Positions 24,323 to 32,577 are shown, numbered from the stretch's first letter. The stretch: DNA of 64,000 nt from Sedimentisphaerales bacterium (GCA_963663965.2 CAXXFK010000028.1:256001-320000), one strand, 5' to 3'. Translations and numbers: made by a program. The notes: generated from the sequence alone by a model not told the origin.

Positions 24323-25126
24323 TTGAGGATATCAATGGATATGAGCGAAGCTGAAAACAAAACAGGGATGGAGCAAGACAGTACTTCAATGCCAAACAAA
24401 CCGGAGAAAGTGCCTCTGATTTATACGCTCTATATAAAATCCTTAGCCGCCTGCTATTTAGGGTTTTTGATAATATTTTTTCTGCCATTTTTGACAGGCA
24501 TTAAGATACTCGAGCCTGTACTTTCACATATTGCTGTTGCGATTTTCTTTCTCTGGATCAGTATCTCTTTGTTCCATTTTGTTTTTTTTCTGCTGACTTT
24601 CTTGGCAAAATCGGTAAAGAATCAGAAGATTAAATTTTGGATGCGACTCCTTTCATTTTTTTATCTATTTATTATTCTCTCGATAATAATCCCTGCGCTC
24701 AAACCTGCACGCCAGTCGACACATACAAACTTTTGCCAGAGTAAACTCAGCCAAATTCACAAGGCGTTGTCAGAGTATTCCAAAGATCATGATGGTTGCT
24801 TACCCACGACAAATAAATTCTATTCTGACATAACCGCCAACGATCTTGAAGAGAGCTTTTTTCGCTGCACCCGGGTGGCTGATGATATTCCATTACCCCA
24901 TTATGCGTTAAATCAATATATCTCAGGCAAACGGCTTAAGGATCTTCCGCCCGATATCGTGTTATGTTACGAATGTATTCCTATTTCGGATCTCTCCCAT
25001 AACCAGTTTGACTTGATCGACCAAAGACGACATTACAGCGGTAGCAATATCCTGTTTGCCAATGGTAAGGTTGAGCTTGTCGAACCGGATGAAATTGAAA
25101 AATTAGTTTGGGAAATACCGGAATAA
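24323..25126 (+). CDS. Membrane protein with pseudopilin-like/H-X9-DG-type C-terminal domain (paralog 1)
   Basis: Three TM helices, then PALKPARQ...CQSKLSQI...YSKDHDG.LP...YALN...RRHYSGSNILFANGKVE. Confidence 0.7.
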   Translation: MRISMDMSEAENKTGMEQDSTSMPNKPEKVPLIYTLYIKSLAACYLGFLIIFFLPFLTGIKILEPVLSHIAVAIFFLWISISLFHFVFFLLTFLAKSVKNQKIKFWMRLLSFFYLFIILSIIIPALKPARQSTHTNFCQSKLSQIHKALSEYSKDHDGCLPTTNKFYSDITANDLEESFFRCTRVADDIPLPHYALNQYISGKRLKDLPPDIVLCYECIPISDLSHNQFDLIDQRRHYSGSNILFANGKVELVEPDEIEKLVWEIPE

Positions 25127-25205: not shown

Positions 25206-26021
25206 ATGGGCCGTCATGATATGAATAACAAGGCGAACGTAGGCACAATGGATACAGTAAAGGAAGCCGACTCGCATCCCAGGACGTTCTTCCACGCTCT
25301 TTATGCTTGGTCATTTTTTATTGCCTTGTGTCTGCTGATTCTTTATTTAATACTGATACCCGTTTCAAGCCGGCTTATCAAACCTGCTAAAGTTTTAGAT
25401 CAGGCCACCAGAATCTATCATACGATTGAAAAGGTCGTATTTTTTGTTTGCCTGCTTAGTATTTTTATCCATTTTATATCGATTCCATTGGCTTATCTGA
25501 CCAGGTCGTTTGGCAACAGAAAAATGCGAAGCTGGTCTTGGTTTACTTCTCTGGTATTTGTATTTCTGGCCATCGATATTATTGTTCCGGCCAGGGATTA
25601 TGGGCGTGTTTTTCCTGAAATTAACGATTGTCAATTTAATCTACAACTTATTGACAAAGCTTTAATTCAATATGCCGACGACCATAAGGGGTGCATTCCG
25701 GCCAGTAATGAATTTTATAAGGCACTTTGCCCGGAATATCTCGAATCTCACTGCTTTCAGTGCCCCTCCGTTTCGAGTGATTTGACATTGCCTCATTATG
25801 CTTTGAATCAAAATGTTTCCGACCTGAAACTCAATGAACTTCCCTGTGATATCGTGTTATGCTATGAGCTGGATCCAGTGCCTTTTCACCCCCATAACCA
25901 GTTTGACTTAATCGACCAAAGACGACATTGCAGCGGCAGCAATATCCTGTTTGCCAATGGAAAGATTGAACTTATCGAACCGGATATGATCGAAAAATTG
26001 CGCTGGCAGTTGCCTGAATAA
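25206..26021 (+). CDS. Membrane protein with pseudopilin-like/H-X9-DG-type C-terminal domain (paralog 2)
   Basis: Same architecture: CQFNLQLI...YADDHKG.IP...RRHCSGSNILFANGKIE. Confidence 0.7.
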   Translation: MGRHDMNNKANVGTMDTVKEADSHPRTFFHALYAWSFFIALCLLILYLILIPVSSRLIKPAKVLDQATRIYHTIEKVVFFVCLLSIFIHFISIPLAYLTRSFGNRKMRSWSWFTSLVFVFLAIDIIVPARDYGRVFPEINDCQFNLQLIDKALIQYADDHKGCIPASNEFYKALCPEYLESHCFQCPSVSSDLTLPHYALNQNVSDLKLNELPCDIVLCYELDPVPFHPHNQFDLIDQRRHCSGSNILFANGKIELIEPDMIEKLRWQLPE

Positions 26022-26653: not shown

Positions 26654-27661
26654 CTAGCCATTCCTGGTATTGATAAGATTGACCACCATTTTGACGATCA
26701 TGTCTTTTTCCTGCGGTTTGCTTTCAGCTACCATCAATATCAACGCGACCAGGGTATTATCGGCCAGGCGTCGGTCACCGTTCGTACGATACAAATAGCG
26801 ATTTTTGTCCAGAAACCACAAGAACATAAACGCCGCAATGCGTTTGTTGCCGTCGATAAATGGATGGTTACGAACCAGGAAATAGAGCAAATGGGCCGCT
26901 TTTTCTTCAATGCTGGGATAGAGTTCCCGGCCATCGAAGGTCTGGAATATCGATTTCAGCGAGCCCTGGAAACTATCGTCTTTTTCCCGCCCGAACAGAT
27001 CACCGGCCTGATATTCCGCCCGTAACTGTTCAATGGCTGCTAAGGCTTCGCGATATTCAAGCGGGCATGCGGTTTGTTCACTGACCCCGGTAATCGTCAA
27101 ACGCTGATAATCATACGCGTCAATCAAATCCAGGCCATAGGAATAATCGCGAATGATCCGGACCAGGTCGCCGATTTCGCCCGGAAGCAGGCTGGGGGTA
27201 TTGACTATCCGTTCCAGCAGATCAACCGCTCCCTGCAATTCTCGTAATTTCTCCTGCGTTTCCCGCAAGCGATTCTGGTTGAGAGTATATCCCTCCACCA
27301 GGTGCTGACGCAGAACATTGGTCGCCCAGATACGAAATTGGGTGCCGCGAATCGAATTTACACGGTAACCTACTGATATGATGGCATCAAGGTTGAAATA
27401 TTCAACCTGATAGGTTTTTCCATCTGCGGCAGTTGTTGCATTTTTTGCAACAACTGAAGAACGATTTAGTTCGCCAGCACGGAAAATATTTCTTAAGTGT
27501 CTGGAAATAACGGATTTATCCCTTTGAAAAAGCTCGGTGATCTGATTGAGAGTCAGCCAGACCGTATCCTGCCGGAGTCTGACTTCCAACCCGGGCCGGC
27601 CATCTTCAGCCTGATAAATAATAATATCGGTTGTGGTTGCCATGGTATAGTATTCTAACAT
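26654..27661 (-). CDS. RhuM-family virulence protein fused to Fic/Doc domain
   Basis: N-terminal TVWLT..QI.ELF...YFNLDAIISVGYRVNS.RGTQFRIWA and Fic motif HPFIDGNKR. Confidence 0.9.
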   Translation of the reverse strand: MLEYYTMATTTDIIIYQAEDGRPGLEVRLRQDTVWLTLNQITELFQRDKSVISRHLRNIFRAGELNRSSVVAKNATTAADGKTYQVEYFNLDAIISVGYRVNSIRGTQFRIWATNVLRQHLVEGYTLNQNRLRETQEKLRELQGAVDLLERIVNTPSLLPGEIGDLVRIIRDYSYGLDLIDAYDYQRLTITGVSEQTACPLEYREALAAIEQLRAEYQAGDLFGREKDDSFQGSLKSIFQTFDGRELYPSIEEKAAHLLYFLVRNHPFIDGNKRIAAFMFLWFLDKNRYLYRTNGDRRLADNTLVALILMVAESKPQEKDMIVKMVVNLINTRNG

Positions 27662-27724
27662 GGAGATAACGTGTAATCAATCCTACAATCATACCGGGAG
27701 AGCGCATGATGATGCCGGGAGCGA

Positions 27725-27763
27725 ATAAAAAGAATCAGACCGGACGATACCATCCGGTCTGTT
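27725..27763 (-). terminator. Rho-independent terminator after slipin gene
   Basis: Minus strand CAGACCGGA-tggtatcg-TCCGGTCTG followed by ATTCTTTTT. Confidence 0.7.
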
Positions 27764-27765
27764 CC

Positions 27766-28869
27766 TTAGAGCAGATTGACCACACGGTCAGTCAGACCCT
27801 TTTCACCCAGTACCACGTTCAATTTGGTATTGGCGGCGATCTTTTCCAGCGCTTCCAGCTCACGCATCCGCATCAACACCGGGTTGTTTTCCAGCATCTT
27901 GGCGGTGTTCATCTGCGACCGCATGGCGGCCGTTTCCTCACGTCGCGTGATCAGGTTGGCTTCGGCGGCTTTCTTCGCCTCGGTCACCTTGTTAAGCAGG
28001 TTCTTCATCTCGCCGGGCAAAATGATATCGCGTACCCCCAGCGAGGTGATCCGCATACCCAGTTCCCCGGCGCGATCCTGCAGTTGGTCGGTCAATTCAC
28101 CGGCCAGTGCGTTTTTGTCCGCCAGCAGGCTGTCCAGGTCGCGGCTGCCCACCATCTCGCGCAGCGCCATCTGGGCCGCGCGATACAGCGACTGTTTGCT
28201 GTCTTCCGCGCCGGCCACATAACGGACCGGGTCGGTAACAACATAGTTTACCAGCGCGTTCAAACGCAGCGTCACCTTGTCGGCGGTCATGATGTCCTGG
28301 CCGCTGATTTCGAGGGTCTGTTCGCCGGTGTTTACCTGGAAGATACGTACCTTCCGGGTATTCTTCCAGAAGAGATAACATCCCGCGTTCAGCGTGTCGG
28401 CGTATTGGCCGTCCAGGTACAGAACGCCGCGATGATCTTCATTGATTTCATATTCGCCCAGGAAGTCACGCGCTCCCGGCGACTTCAGCAAAACACTTAA
28501 GTCGCTGCGGTTCACGCGCACCTCGTTGGCGTTGACAATCTCAACGCGCACCTGTCGCTGGGTGGTCCACAGCGCGTACAGACCGCCGGCCACAATCCGG
28601 TCGAATCGGCCGTCAATCCAGATCAGCGCCCGTTCGTGGTCCTGTAAGTCCAGTACCCGGATCTGGTTGTCCAGCAGGCCGGACTTCACCAACAGGTCCA
28701 GGTCCTTGTGTTTCAGCCACGGATCGCGCATGTCCACCACATCCACTCGAACACGGTCGAGCAGGTCGAACAGCCAGTATTTGCCCCTGGTCAGGACCGA
28801 TACCAGTTCGCCATCAACGAACTTCAGTCCCGCCTGATAGCTGCGAATGTGAATTCGGGTTAGTGCCAT
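27766..28869 (-). CDS. SPFH/band-7 protein, slipin family (N-terminal repeats)
   Basis: Three repeats of ERAL/GL...DG...L..G.Y..W, then SGQDIMTADKVTLRLN, GVRDIILPGEMK and NLITRREETAAMRSQMNTAKMLENNP. AAAGGA RBS. Confidence 0.9.
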   Translation of the reverse strand: MALTRIHIRSYQAGLKFVDGELVSVLTRGKYWLFDLLDRVRVDVVDMRDPWLKHKDLDLLVKSGLLDNQIRVLDLQDHERALIWIDGRFDRIVAGGLYALWTTQRQVRVEIVNANEVRVNRSDLSVLLKSPGARDFLGEYEINEDHRGVLYLDGQYADTLNAGCYLFWKNTRKVRIFQVNTGEQTLEISGQDIMTADKVTLRLNALVNYVVTDPVRYVAGAEDSKQSLYRAAQMALREMVGSRDLDSLLADKNALAGELTDQLQDRAGELGMRITSLGVRDIILPGEMKNLLNKVTEAKKAAEANLITRREETAAMRSQMNTAKMLENNPVLMRMRELEALEKIAANTKLNVVLGEKGLTDRVVNLL

Positions 28870-29024
28870 AGTCTGGTCCTTTCAATAGAGGTTAACAATT
28901 CAAAACAAAAAGCTCATGAGCGTTACAATTTCATTTTATTTCAATTAACAGGATAGTCATGGGGCACGCCGTTGTTTTAGCGACATCCAGGAGAGTCAGT
29001 CAGAATCTATACTCTCCAGAGACA

Positions 29025-29285
29025 GAACAATTCCACTGCCACAACACCTTAAGCGGGGAACGCTTAAGCCGATACTGTTACGGCGGTCGATCCTGTCGCC
29101 TGGCCGCGGTTTACACGCTTTTTCCCCCGCGTGCAAACCGCCGGCCATTGGACAGTCCGATCCATCGCGGTTGTATCGGCGTTATCCGCCTTCCGCAAGG
29201 CTTTCGGTCCTGCCGCCGGCTGTCTTTGTCGCGGCGGAAGAATTTTCGCCACAACGCCGACAGCCGGCCGACAGTAAAATTGTCC
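29025..29285 (-). ncRNA. Candidate ~260-nt multibranched structured RNA (may extend 28990-29320)
   Basis: 16-bp closing helix GGACAAUUUUACUGUC/GGCAGUGGAAUUGUUC with four G-U pairs that form only on the minus strand. It encloses GCCGGCUGUC/GACAGCCGGC, GCCUU/AAGGC, GCCGAUAC/GUAUCGGC, GCGGUUUGCACGC/GCGUGUAAACCGC and CUUAAGCG/CGCUUAAG. Confidence 0.7.
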
Positions 29286-29323
29286 TTCTCCTTCGAGTTC
29301 AAGGAGGCCCTTGACAGGGCCGG

Positions 29324-29397
29324 TGGGTGGGGATACAGGAGTCGAACCTGCGGCATCCAGTTTCAAGCTGGCGCTCTACCAGTTGAGCTAATCCCAG
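29324..29397 (-). ncRNA. tRNA-like RNA, 4-bp anticodon stem, loop CUUGAAA (nominal anticodon UGA), encoded CCA
   Basis: CTGGGAT TA GCTC AACTGGTA GAGC G CCAG CTTGAAA CTGG ATGCC GCAGG TTCGACT CCTGT ATCCCCA C CCA. Pairs 1:72 and 2:71 are mismatched. Confidence 0.8.
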
Positions 29398-29425
29398 GGA
29401 GTTGGCACAACGGGCCAACCGGGTG

Positions 29426-29495
29426 TTATCGATACGGGATTCGAACCCGTGTTTGCAGTAACGAACTGCCGCTCTACCTGCTGAGCTAATCAAAA
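29426..29495 (-). ncRNA. tRNA-like RNA, shortened anticodon arm, loop UUCGUUA (nominal anticodon CGU)
   Basis: TTTTGAT TA GCTC AGCAGGTA GAGC G GCAG TTCGTTA CTGC AAAC ACGGG TTCGAAT CCCGT ATCGATA A. No encoded CCA. Confidence 0.8.
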
Positions 29496-29624
29496 CCAAC
29501 CCTTTGGTGTCCACCATCGTTAGAATCCGTCGCACGGAACATGGCAGACGAAACGGACGATCCGTCATCGCCATGCCGCCGGCCCGGCAGACAATATCCT
29601 GTTTATTTGTCAAATAGCTTATCA

Positions 29625-29696
29625 TAGCTCCGACAGGATTCGAACCTGTACCTTGCGGATTATGAGTCCGCCGCTCTGCCCTTGAGCTACGGAGCG
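29625..29696 (-). tRNA. tRNA with CAU anticodon (Met or Ile2), no encoded CCA
   Basis: CGCTCCG TA GCTC AAGGGCA GAGC G GCGGA CTCATAA TCCGC AAGGT ACAGG TTCGAAT CCTGT CGGAGCT A. Full cloverleaf with a C1:U72 mismatch. Confidence 0.85.
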
Positions 29697-29702
29697 GTAG
29701 TG

Positions 29703-29726
29703 ACGGGGCGGATCGCTCCGCCCCGT
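29703..29726 (-). other. GC-rich hairpin without U-tract (processing/stabilising stem) between ORF and tRNA
   Basis: ACGGGGCGGA-gcga-TCCGCCCCGT lies 6 nt upstream of the tRNA 5' end. Confidence 0.6.
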
Positions 29727-29731
29727 GGTGA

Positions 29732-30553
29732 TCAATCCAGAAACGCCACGTTTTCGGTCATTACTTCCCGGTTGCTTAAGACCCGGTGCCACGAGTCTAA
29801 CACAACCGTCTTATGATCCGAATGACGAATGGTTCCTTTTACCAGTACCTCCGGATTACGTCGCATCACGCGCCAGCGGTGATTTCTGGTTTCCGGAACG
29901 TTCATCATCAAATCGCGATATTCATCTTCACTGACCCCGTTAGGGCGCATCTGGCTGACATACACCGTCTCGCCGCCGGTACGCGTCAGATATTCCGCGA
30001 CATGCGGTTTACCGCCGCGCATCAGCGGTTCATTATGAAACACGGTCAATGCGTTGACGCGTACATCCTCAACCGGCACAAAGAACCATTCACCCTGACG
30101 GATAAAACCATCGTTGTGCCGTTTCTGCCAGTTCTTATGGCGAACCTTGCGCGCGTGCTGCGCGTCAATCACGCCGGCCGGCTTCAGCGATTCCTTCGCC
30201 TGCCAGACATTGGTGCAGCGCGAGTTGACTCCCGCCACAAACCAGTGGCGTTCGTCGTGGCCGCACAGAAATTTCTGCCAAGTGGTAGAAGTTTTGGCGC
30301 TGGCTCCAATATCGCGGCTATCCACCAGCAACACCAGGTGCCGGTCCTGCCGGTCCGTATGCAGAACCGTCAGTTTCAGGTCAGGCACGGCATAGCGGAA
30401 TTCAAATAGCTCGCCTTTGCGGTCCTGGCCGATATCGATCGCGTAGCGCCCGAATCGGCGGTATCGGGCCGGGCGTTCGCTCTGGTCGTCAAACCGGATA
30501 CGCGCGCCCATCCGTTCAAACTGGTTAACAATCGGTAAAGTATCCATAATCAA
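29732..30553 (-). CDS. Uncharacterised His/Arg-rich protein
   Basis: 273 aa with GAGGA RBS. Motifs FLCGHDERHWFVAG, RQGEWFFVP, GGKPH and KGTIRHSDHKTVVL..WHRV. Confidence 0.8.
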   Translation of the reverse strand: MIMDTLPIVNQFERMGARIRFDDQSERPARYRRFGRYAIDIGQDRKGELFEFRYAVPDLKLTVLHTDRQDRHLVLLVDSRDIGASAKTSTTWQKFLCGHDERHWFVAGVNSRCTNVWQAKESLKPAGVIDAQHARKVRHKNWQKRHNDGFIRQGEWFFVPVEDVRVNALTVFHNEPLMRGGKPHVAEYLTRTGGETVYVSQMRPNGVSEDEYRDLMMNVPETRNHRWRVMRRNPEVLVKGTIRHSDHKTVVLDSWHRVLSNREVMTENVAFLD

Positions 30554-30560
30554 TCTATCC

Positions 30561-30842
30561 TCAATGTTTGGGTTTCATCATTCTCGGAGGCATCGCCTGC
30601 TGCACCCAGTCGGTCGTCACCGTCACGCCCTGCGTTTCGGTCACTTCCAGGTCCAGGGGCCGCACCAGAATAATGTCGCAGTAGATGCCCAGGTAATTTT
30701 CCCTGATATACATTAAATAACGGCTTTCTGGCCGGCAGTAGAACGGAGCCGCGTTCATCTCATGAAAGTAGATACGCGTATAAACCGTCTCTGCCTGGTC
30801 CAGCTTTAATTGCTTGTTCATCATCATTTCCTTGTCAGTCAT
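30561..30842 (-). CDS. Hypothetical protein
   Basis: Roughly 86-93 aa ORF with an AAGGA RBS. Its stop lies in the RBS of the next gene. Confidence 0.55.
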   Translation of the reverse strand: MTDKEMMMNKQLKLDQAETVYTRIYFHEMNAAPFYCRPESRYLMYIRENYLGIYCDIILVRPLDLEVTETQGVTVTTDWVQQAMPPRMMKPKH

Positions 30843-31020
30843 TCATGTCGGGTCCTCGTTTGGAAGTTTTATTACGGTCTGTTCAACACGCAGCGATTAC
30901 GAATAAAATAGCCTGATCATAACAACACCTCGCTTCGGAGTTTTCTGCGCAGAGAATCCCCGCGCTCATTAGAAACAATTTCTTAAAGTCTATTTGGTTA
31001 CTCGAACTTCGGCGCCAACG

Positions 31021-31057
31021 AAAAAAGCCTTTCAGGATCGGCTCCTGAAAGGCTTTT
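31021..31057 (-). terminator. Attenuator terminator in the 5' leader of the tRNA-like/slipin operon
   Basis: Minus strand AAAAGCCTTTCAGGA-gccga-TCCTGAAAGGCTTTTTT. Confidence 0.85.
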
Positions 31058-31088
31058 AGATGATTTGAGAATTATCTAAACGGTCCTT

Positions 31089-31226
31089 CTATGGAGCGCC
31101 TCCCCGGCAGTTGATGCCGTAGTCGCCATTGAATATCATTGCCTCTGTTTGCGGCCGGCTGGATAACGTGCCGGTACAGAGAACGATATGGCGAATTTCA
31201 AATTGTCTTGGTTTTAAACGAATCAC
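31089..31226 (-). CDS. Putative leader peptide MIRLKPRQ...YGINCRGGAP (45 aa)
   Basis: GTG 5 nt after GAGG, between the promoter and the terminator. The stop-codon region GCTCCATAGAAGG is complementary to the terminator 5' arm CCTTTCAGGAGC. Confidence 0.6.
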   Translation of the reverse strand: MIRLKPRQFEIRHIVLCTGTLSSRPQTEAMIFNGDYGINCRGGAP

Positions 31227-31285
31227 ATTGGCCTCGCAATGATGCTGGGGGTTAAAGTTTTTAAAAGAACCTTTACGATACCTCA

Positions 31286-31314
31286 ACTATATCGTCACAA
31301 ACAAAACCTGTCAA
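31286..31314 (-). promoter_or_regulatory. sigma70 promoter of the tRNA-like/slipin operon
   Basis: TTGACA-17 nt-TATAGT on the minus strand. Confidence 0.75.
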
Positions 31315-32304: not shown

Positions 32305-32577
32305 ATGACCGAATTAACTCTCAATCAACTCATGGCTTACCTGACATCCCGGCGTATGGCCTCACTGGGCAATATCGCCTCCCATTTCGACCGTCCGGTT
32401 ACGGACCTGATTCCGCTGGTCCAGACACTCCAGGAACATCAGCGTTTGCGCGCCGCATCGTCGCGCTGCCAGAGCGATTGCAGCCAATGCGCCAGTTGCG
32501 GCCCGGAATCAGCGCCGGCTGTCCTGTCCGACCGGACAATTCTCATATCGTTAGAATCCAGCACTACTTGCGGCTAG
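32305..32577 (+). CDS. FeoC-like winged-helix protein with Cys cluster
   Basis: LNQLMAYL..RRMASL..IASHF...C-x3-C-x2-C-x2-C. Confidence 0.6.
   Translation: MTELTLNQLMAYLTSRRMASLGNIASHFDRPVTDLIPLVQTLQEHQRLRAASSRCQSDCSQCASCGPESAPAVLSDRTILISLESSTTCG

Follow-up and report, generated by a model that had tools for sequence, protein, structure and literature searches.

What does a bacterium do with a short string of tRNA mimics, a large folded RNA, a protein of no recognisable family and a slipin, all encoded in one direction behind an attenuator-like leader? This question is raised by a locus of a Sedimentisphaerales bacterium (GCA_963663965.2 CAXXFK010000028.1:256001-320000), at 27725..31314 of a 64,000-nucleotide (nt) stretch of DNA that was analysed in full (the window; positions are counted from its first letter) and on the minus strand throughout. 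From 5' to 3' the unit comprises a promoter, a leader open reading frame (ORF) with a terminator, an ORF of 93 amino acids (aa), a gene for a 271-aa protein, a hairpin, tRNA(CAU), two tRNA-like genes, an RNA of about 300 nt, the slipin gene and a terminator. The initial annotation of this DNA had proposed a translation-stress or anti-ribotoxin module, in which an uncharacterised protein and an extra large RNA took the place of the repair proteins RtcB and TROVE, possibly as a membrane-tethered ribonucleoprotein (RNP). The reading favoured here, with rather better than even confidence, is that the unit joins a 271-aa protein of tRNA arrays, an extra tRNA, two mimics, a folded RNA and a soluble slipin, that it is likely opened by the attenuator when ribosomes falter, and that it is predicted to keep or restore working translation RNAs.

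Supernumerary tRNA-shaped genes

Three tRNA-shaped genes were found with ARAGORN and Rfam, as the initial annotation had held: a tRNA(CAU) and two aberrant tRNA-like genes with a shortened loop and partial model coverage, respectively. The tRNA(CAU) gene (29625..29696; Rfam 66.2 bits, model positions 1-71) forms a full cloverleaf, has a C1:U72 mismatch in the alignment and does not encode CCA. The anticodon loop of tRNA-like 1 (29425..29495; 49 bits) is shortened, and tRNA-like 2 (29324..29397; 43.5 bits), which is slipin-proximal and of the b7a-tRNA kind, covers only model positions 3-68; it was called Ser(tga) but is 74 nt long, where the housekeeping tRNA-Ser(tga) has 86 nt. With 51 tRNAs the set of the genome is complete, a tmRNA is present as well, and all three genes in the window are supernumerary, their anticodons being already present elsewhere in the genome. 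The CAU gene is the fifth of the genome, with 47-55 of about 80 positions in common with the other four.

A YrlA identity for the two mimics was rejected, with an Rfam score of 31.1 bits against a gathering score of 69 (E 5.6e-4). This sub-threshold match (29347-29472, minus strand) is made up of one arm from each mimic, the T arm from the first and the D arm from the second. The interval between tRNA(CAU) and the first mimic (29624..29496), previously described as a structured spacer, did not sustain that description, having a z of -0.78 with 41 of 200 shuffles folding equally well.

Expression of the mimic region is weakly hinted at by a metatranscriptome run, in which a 252-nt contig is identical to window positions 29290-29540 bar one inserted base, with no other differing letter, and includes both mimics together with the opening bases of the folded RNA. 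Elsewhere in the 3.6-kb stretch, RNA run X4 offered only contigs of other organisms, less than 90% alike. The stretch is present in full in two DNA-type runs, both of one sample, which may be its source.

A protein family of tRNA arrays and repair loci

The His-rich ORF upstream of the tRNA-shaped genes (29732..30547) is real; judged by its relatives, a start at ATG 30547, giving 271 aa, is likelier than the 273-aa version from TTG 30553 (30553..29732), and 13 of the 271 residues are His. At E 1e-3, 5423 of 5727 candidates were relatives, and not one has a Pfam domain or an informative name; a profile search over clusters at 50% identity returned 2728 clusters at E 1e-3, 1530 at E 1e-10 and 642 at E 1e-30, nearly all of 250-300 aa. 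The family is marked by invariant polar runs, namely Cys-Gly-His-Asp-Glu-Arg, Arg-Gln-Gly-Glu-Trp-Phe-Phe, His-x-Asp-His-x-Thr and a C-terminal Phe-Leu-Asp; the ORF in the window is intact and keeps all invariant residues. Only three longer or fused forms were seen, joined to esterase or WD40 parts, and these were uninformative.

The protein had no match in Pfam, NCBIfam, PADLOC or PHROGs, its best E-value against PDB sequence profiles was 0.49, and literature searches, made by term and not by sequence, returned no description of the family or of the slipin-leader RNA. All clusters returned by an Atlas search consist of hypothetical proteins, and some include phage members. The AlphaFold model is confident, two-domain and mostly beta (predicted local distance difference test, pLDDT, 93.4). 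Foldseek returned nothing at E 0.001 for the whole model or its C-terminal half, and the best VIA match to the whole model had a Z of 3.6 (root-mean-square deviation 3.6, 78 aligned). With the C-terminal half modelled alone (pLDDT 86.2), more than half of 38 VIA rows were Sm/LSm chains or complexes holding them; the best Z of 3.0 is too weak for an Sm-like fold to be assigned, and it is kept as a lead only.

Among 80 bacterial loci of the family examined, 30 contained tRNAs and 18 at least five, with up to 42 in 10.8 kb, and 273 of 276 tRNAs were co-oriented with the gene. Their density, one per 2.6 kb, compares with 51 in the 7.24 Mb of the window's own genome. Neighbours confirmed with Pfam were TROVE (14 loci), RtcB (12), HNH (11), slipin (7), RlaP (6) and AAA ATPase (3), and 38 of the 80 loci had a tRNA or an RNA-repair neighbour. 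The same association was found in IMG/VR, where 105 stretches encode a relative: of the 80 kept, many of them on contigs of 100-530 kb, 50 had tRNAs and 36 at least five, and 443 of 452 tRNAs were co-oriented with the gene. The 271-aa protein is a novel element of this unit, from a family that lies within the tRNA arrays of bacteria and giant phages. The RtcB/Ro60/Band-7 repair neighbourhood suggested earlier is borne out by these loci; the idea that the protein stands instead of RtcB or TROVE is not, since it co-occurs with both. Because it adjoins RtcB, Ro60/TROVE, RlaP and HNH, the protein accompanies the repair enzymes and does not replace them.

Some loci of the family have a fixed order of genes. 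In L015, L025, L030, L048 and L058 the 271-aa gene is followed after 38-56 nt by tRNA-His, then by an HNH gene and then by tRNA-Trp, an order kept across phyla, in genomes of planctomycetes and of one gammaproteobacterium. A shorter form of the protein (L176-L214), starting near Cys-Gly-His-Asp-Glu-Arg and corresponding to query residues of about 95-270, occurs in large viral contigs, in several cases within tRNA arrays of 17-23 genes.

These contexts also suit a different origin for the locus, as mobile counter-defence cargo: the remnant of a horizontally moving array of a phage or other element that replaces or shields tRNAs cut by anticodon nucleases, with the 271-aa protein as an anti-nuclease or array-maintenance factor and not a host repair enzyme. 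It is consistent with the patchiness of the 271-aa family among the window's kin, being present in one of 60 relatives' genomes and truncated there, with its frequency within tRNA arrays of large viral contigs, with the HNH genes at 11 of the 80 bacterial loci, and with three tRNA-shaped genes that are supernumerary and unlike the housekeeping ones. A gene for a RhuM-Fic protein of a candidate defence family, PDC-S23, adjoins the unit, and passages of PMC7824862 and PMC12803027 read phage tRNAs as substitutes for cleaved host tRNAs. Against it, no match to the 271-aa protein was found in 50,697 phage or 72,556 plasmid records, no integrase or phage gene was seen in the immediate flanks, though no search aimed at them was made, and the attenuator implies host-type regulation by translation state. 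Cargo of this kind is unlikely, and it overlaps the favoured reading, that of a stress-opened unit serving translation RNAs, without excluding it.

The relative G009, of the same taxonomic family as the source of the window, has the order leader-attenuator, truncated 271-aa homologue, tRNA-Leu, tRNA-Tyr and slipin-like gene, without the 93-aa ORF. The homologue (about 1495-1869 in the oriented copy of L084) ends after 129 residues, with the N-terminal domain alone left. A single-protein scan of the genome contigs with the 271-aa sequence found no relative; an alignment-based scan did find relatives.

A recurring unit of tRNA mimic, structured RNA and slipin

The last gene of the unit (27766..28869) encodes a slipin of 367 aa, as annotated before, with an SPFH/Band_7 domain at residues 141-312 (PF01145, 105.7 bits against a cut-off of 23.6, 3.7e-30) behind an N-terminal extension of 140 residues; its scores against the HflK/HflC models of NCBIfam lie far under the cut-offs. 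An N-terminal membrane anchor is typical of stomatin and HflK/C. Such an anchor was looked for in the slipin and rejected: no hydrophobic segment was found, the highest 19-residue Kyte-Doolittle mean being only 0.87, so that the protein is probably soluble and the membrane tether of the proposed RNP is unlikely.

Of 401 genomes sampled from the phylum, 62 encode the slipin subfamily, and the window's genome is one of them. A co-oriented tRNA or tRNA-like match to Rfam lies 5' of the gene, within the 1.5-kb flank, in 27 of 29 further slipin loci, and the distance from this element to the slipin start falls between 423 and 488 nt in nine of the 29 loci, in three loci found via the 271-aa protein, and in the window. 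Conserved blocks are common to the aligned tRNA-slipin gaps. When 20 slipin loci were examined with wider flanks, five proved to be tRNA arrays, each of 16-34 co-oriented genes, in which the aberrant tRNA-like gene, the RNA and the slipin are embedded; RtcB lies near the slipin in two of the 20, HNH in two and the 271-aa protein in one. The tRNA mimic, the RNA of about 300 nt and the slipin are a recurring unit, and this unit belongs with long tRNA arrays.

In the window, the conserved RNA (29009..29305), detected by folding and covariation, comprises eight helices and is closed by a long-range helix. This copy has a minimum free energy of -158.7 kcal/mol (z -10.2, none of 200 shuffles as good) and folds alone into the same architecture as the alignment consensus. 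The consensus was computed with RNAalifold on 11 of 18 aligned sequences, chosen as consistently placed by MAFFT (L057, L093, L096, L098, L101, L105 and L112 were dropped), and has 54 pairs in eight helices, 35 of the pairs with compensatory changes. Paired cells make up 90.4%, as opposed to 33-47% with slid partners, and the covariation score is 0.471 compared with about 0.1 in controls, none of 500 shuffles reaching the observed values. Rfam assigned no family, either to the window at E up to 10 or to four other loci at E up to 1. A missed protein gene in the tRNA-slipin gap was considered and rejected: L091 and L092 (52% G+C) have no stop-free stretch of more than 64 codons. The large structured RNA of the initial annotation, put there at about 260 nt, is therefore real. 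It is not extra: 27 of 29 loci have a tRNA or tRNA-like gene 5' of the slipin, and the gap between the two is occupied by the conserved RNA, which is the regular partner element of the slipin.

Such regular placement could also mean that the RNA and the mimics act purely in cis, as the leader of the slipin mRNA, and are not partners of the protein; such a leader might, for instance, sense a metabolite, or tRNA that is uncharged or damaged. The RNA always lies directly 5' of the slipin on the same strand, with only 60-140 nt between it and the slipin start codon, as a leader would. Yet tRNA-shaped elements are normally excised by RNase P and RNase Z, and cutting there would separate off whatever lies upstream; within arrays this RNA comes after up to 26 true tRNAs; and no terminator or sequestering of a ribosome-binding site was seen at the 3' end of the RNA, which was looked at superficially. 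A purely cis-acting role is accordingly improbable. The weakest explanation, already disfavoured and at most a very slight chance, is decaying junk, with the mimics as pseudogenes of a broken tRNA array and unrelated genes beside them, as the aberrant anticodon loops and acceptor stems of the tRNA-like genes, the orphan 93-aa ORF and the truncated G009 homologue might suggest, but 27 of 29 loci, from a subfamily spread over 50 genera, retain the mimic/RNA/slipin order, 35 RNA pairs show compensatory changes, the 271-aa ORF is intact with its invariant residues, and a contig from an RNA library covers the mimics.

A conserved leader at the head of the probable operon

The unit opens with a leader ORF (31089..31226) ending in CRGGAP before a TAG stop codon (31091..31089), with 45 aa if read from GTG 31226, 5 nt 5' of which lies a GAGG, or 16 aa if read from ATG 31139. 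Its last codons, stop codon and a GAAGG box (31080..31110) are predicted, from inferred pairing, to form the 5' half of an antiterminator that a terminating ribosome would cover. They are followed by an intrinsic terminator (31021..31057), read from the sequence as a hairpin of 13-15 bp with the stem AAAGCCTTTCAGG / CCTGAAAGGCTTT and a run of six T; this hairpin was not listed by the automated terminator rule. The terminator region of the window has weak matches just 5' of tRNAs in three slipin loci.

A search with a strict pattern over all fetched loci recovered nine distinct leaders of the same build, the window's own included. Each has an ORF of about 44-66 codons, a stop codon -3 to +7 nt from a GAAG(G) box, a spacer of about 35 nt and a terminator, so that ORFs comparable to that of the window terminate at the same box in eight other loci. 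The base of the terminator stem, GCCUU/AAGGC, is invariant in all nine; the terminator helix is 97.4% paired across them, and five pairs show compensatory change on both sides. Five of the nine leader peptides end in Pro, commonly as Gly-Gly-x-Pro. In seven of the nine leaders, the best upstream partner of the 5' arm of the terminator is the segment of last codon, stop codon and GAAG box (-13 to -21 kcal/mol). Leaders of this build stand in front of the string described here, of mimic-slipin pairs on their own and of arrays with 23-34 tRNAs; leader ORF, GAAG box and terminator recur at the heads of such operons.

Ribosome-dependent attenuators, known from amino-acid operons and from leader ORFs that sense antibiotics, combine a leader peptide with alternative hairpins. 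The present leader resembles these transcription attenuators in having a short ORF (translated in the known systems), a terminator and, further 5', a segment predicted to pair with the 5' arm of the terminator. It differs in that the competing segment overlaps the stop codon, and it would therefore read the general arrival or termination of ribosomes and not a single amino acid. The arrangement fits a ribosome-sensing attenuator, as judged from sequence and predicted pairing. The leader peptide and attenuator claimed earlier stand in part: ORF, hairpin and T6 are present and the arrangement recurs, but the competing pairing that is best at the stop codon and GAAG box in most leaders lies elsewhere in the window. 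Between the leader terminator and the 93-aa ORF lies a seven-codon mini-ORF, MIRLFYS, with a well-spaced GAGGTG (30897-30920, minus strand), which could be a second translated sensor or chance.

Relation to known RNA-repair systems and tRNA arrays

Burroughs and Aravind reportedly predicted in 2016 a pair of b7a-tRNA and Band-7 protein. The slipin of the window with its upstream mimic matches this pair, and the recurring unit had to that extent been predicted in part. The likeness lies in an SPFH protein preceded on the same strand by a tRNA-resembling RNA, here tRNA-like 2, with such an element found in 27 of 29 loci, and in relatives placed beside RtcB or Ro60. The pair is cited in bioRxiv 10.1101/312249 as a prediction for RtcB-type repair systems; in the window no RtcB is adjacent, and it is adjacent in two of the 20 slipin contexts. 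The window also has a covarying RNA of about 300 nt, a second mimic, a true-looking tRNA, an attenuator and a 271-aa protein, none of which figures in the passage of that preprint on the pair.

Long tRNA arrays offer a second comparison. They are defined by at least 20 tRNA genes at a density of at least two per kb in PMC4758250, and that of PCC 7120 is described as supernumerary, co-oriented, horizontally spread tRNAs linked to HNH and rtcB (PMC8421152; PMC10272220). In Anabaena such arrays are silent and induced by translation inhibitors, with HNH and rtcB linked and co-regulated, according to passages of PMC8421152. The three genes of the window are likewise supernumerary, co-oriented and unlike the housekeeping tRNAs, and relatives of both window proteins sit inside such arrays. 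In size the window falls short, with three tRNA-shaped genes in 373 nt, while the loci of relatives reach 30-42; the locus looks like a reduced long tRNA array.

Regulation of the Anabaena array provides a further parallel. The repressor TrcR binds the promoter of alr0739-alr0740, encoding a hypothetical protein and a slipin, and in Table 1 of the same paper the two genes are raised 71- and 42-fold when trcR is mutated, with rtcB, an HNH gene and the long tRNA array also up (PMC10272220); this slipin operon and the array share their regulation under translation stress. TrcR is a ribbon-helix-helix protein in the accounts of that system, whereas control in the window would be by attenuator.

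The third comparison is with the Ro60 (Rsr)-Y RNA/YrlA system, which likewise couples a tRNA-like module to a second structured RNA and is encoded, in repair neighbourhoods, next to a ring- or cage-forming RNA-binding protein. It serves here as a working analogy, with the RNA linking a protein to factors that bind tRNA. The differences are the YrlA score below the gathering threshold, the lack of a TROVE match in the genome, and the window protein being of the SPFH type. Jumbo phages carry tRNAs, RtcB, RlaP and TROVE, a set read in passages of PMC7824862 as defence of translation against attack, and RlaP is described in a preprint (10.64898/2025.12.29.696909) as adding nucleotides to damaged RNA ends.

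Proposed mechanism and function

The favoured model for the stress-opened unit would begin at the leader. A ribosome that reaches the leader stop codon would cover the upstream partner of the terminator's 5' arm, allowing the terminator to form and leaving the operon off; with ribosomes stalled earlier or scarce, the upstream partner would pair with the terminator arm and permit read-through. The long transcript would then be cut at the tRNA-shaped elements, and one or both mimics and the folded RNA may assemble with the slipin into a soluble particle, as Y RNA serves Ro60. The 271-aa protein would act on, or bind, tRNA or RNA ends. The conserved leader-ORF/terminator arrangement makes translation-stress control plausible, and the induction of the Anabaena slipin operon in the trcR mutant, as tabulated in PMC10272220, is in keeping with it; to this extent the translation-stress module put forward in the initial annotation is plausible, and a function in translation stress or RNA damage is a prediction from gene content and context.

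Several observations weigh against this model. The 252-nt contig of the RNA library may stem from DNA, which such libraries can contain, and neither ends nor strand can be read from a contig. A weak promoter-like site (28933..28960; 9 of 12 consensus positions by consensus scan) lies in an AT-rich stretch directly 5' of the slipin and is a possible internal start. The genome search for repair partners had a divided outcome: rtcB is present on another contig (C15), outside the locus, and TROVE had no match in the genome, which is 94.6% complete. No tRNA or repair gene was found in the fetched flanks of 42 of the 80 bacterial loci of the 271-aa family. The 271-aa protein and the slipin subfamily of the window share a locus in only seven of the 80 and one of the 20 loci, so that their pairing in the window may be incidental. 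The strict pattern recovers the attenuator in only nine of all fetched loci, and two leaders, those of the window and of locus L122, have their best partner of the terminator arm outside the GAAG box; in the window this partner is the last codons, 10-20 nt 5' of the stop. The genes alr0739 and alr0740, as presented in PMC10272220, were likened to those of the window by description (hypothetical protein plus slipin). Finally, the 93-aa ORF (30561..30842), an open frame that is putatively coding, is unexplained: the frame noted earlier is present, and no relative was found among 5.8 billion proteins or in any fetched locus.

A bolder version of the model is tentative and the less probable one. 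It would make the 271-aa protein a new-fold, RNA-acting family dedicated to the long tRNA arrays of bacteria and jumbo phages, the soluble slipin, mimics and 300-nt RNA a hitherto unseen RNP cage working like that of Ro60 and Y RNA, and the attenuator a gauge of global ribosome performance.

Long tRNA arrays, RtcB/Ro60 operons and the tRNA sets of phages are each interpreted as a response to attack on the translation machinery, and their accessory parts are mostly uncharacterised. Among the parts described here are a family of 2728 clusters with a confident model and no recognisable fold, which keeps company with tRNA arrays and repair enzymes in bacteria and giant phages; a covarying RNA outside Rfam, which always has a tRNA mimic on one side and a soluble SPFH protein on the other; and a conserved leader that could report global ribosome performance. 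Each of them could explain how cells and phages sense and mend damaged translation RNAs, and the slipin-RNA pair, if true, would give SPFH proteins a role away from membranes.

Borders of the unit and neighbouring genes

The co-oriented string is likely to be one operon. A consensus scan placed a sigma-70-like promoter, TTGACA-17-TATAGT, at 31286..31314 (11 of 12 consensus positions) and a terminator-like hairpin of 11 pairs with a T-run at 27736..27761, both coinciding with the borders drawn in the initial annotation, whose single unit between a near-consensus promoter and a terminator is upheld. So is its hairpin 5' of tRNA(CAU), a GC-rich hairpin of 10 bp without a T-run (29703..29726), between the 271-aa gene and the tRNA.

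Upstream of the unit, a FeoC-like protein of 90 aa (PF09012, 5.7e-07; 32305-32577, plus strand) is apparently unrelated to it. Directly 3' of the unit terminator lies the gene for a 335-aa protein with RhuM and Fic/Doc domains (26654-27661, minus strand), which has its own promoter-like site at 27680..27652 and matches PDC-S23 at 1.5e-133. Farther on, two tandem paralogous ORFs of 267 and 271 aa (24323-25126 and 25206-26021, plus strand), neither with a Pfam match, have a common C-terminal half and hydrophobic N-terminal parts, and the 3-kb stretch around them is low in G+C, at 0.39-0.42.

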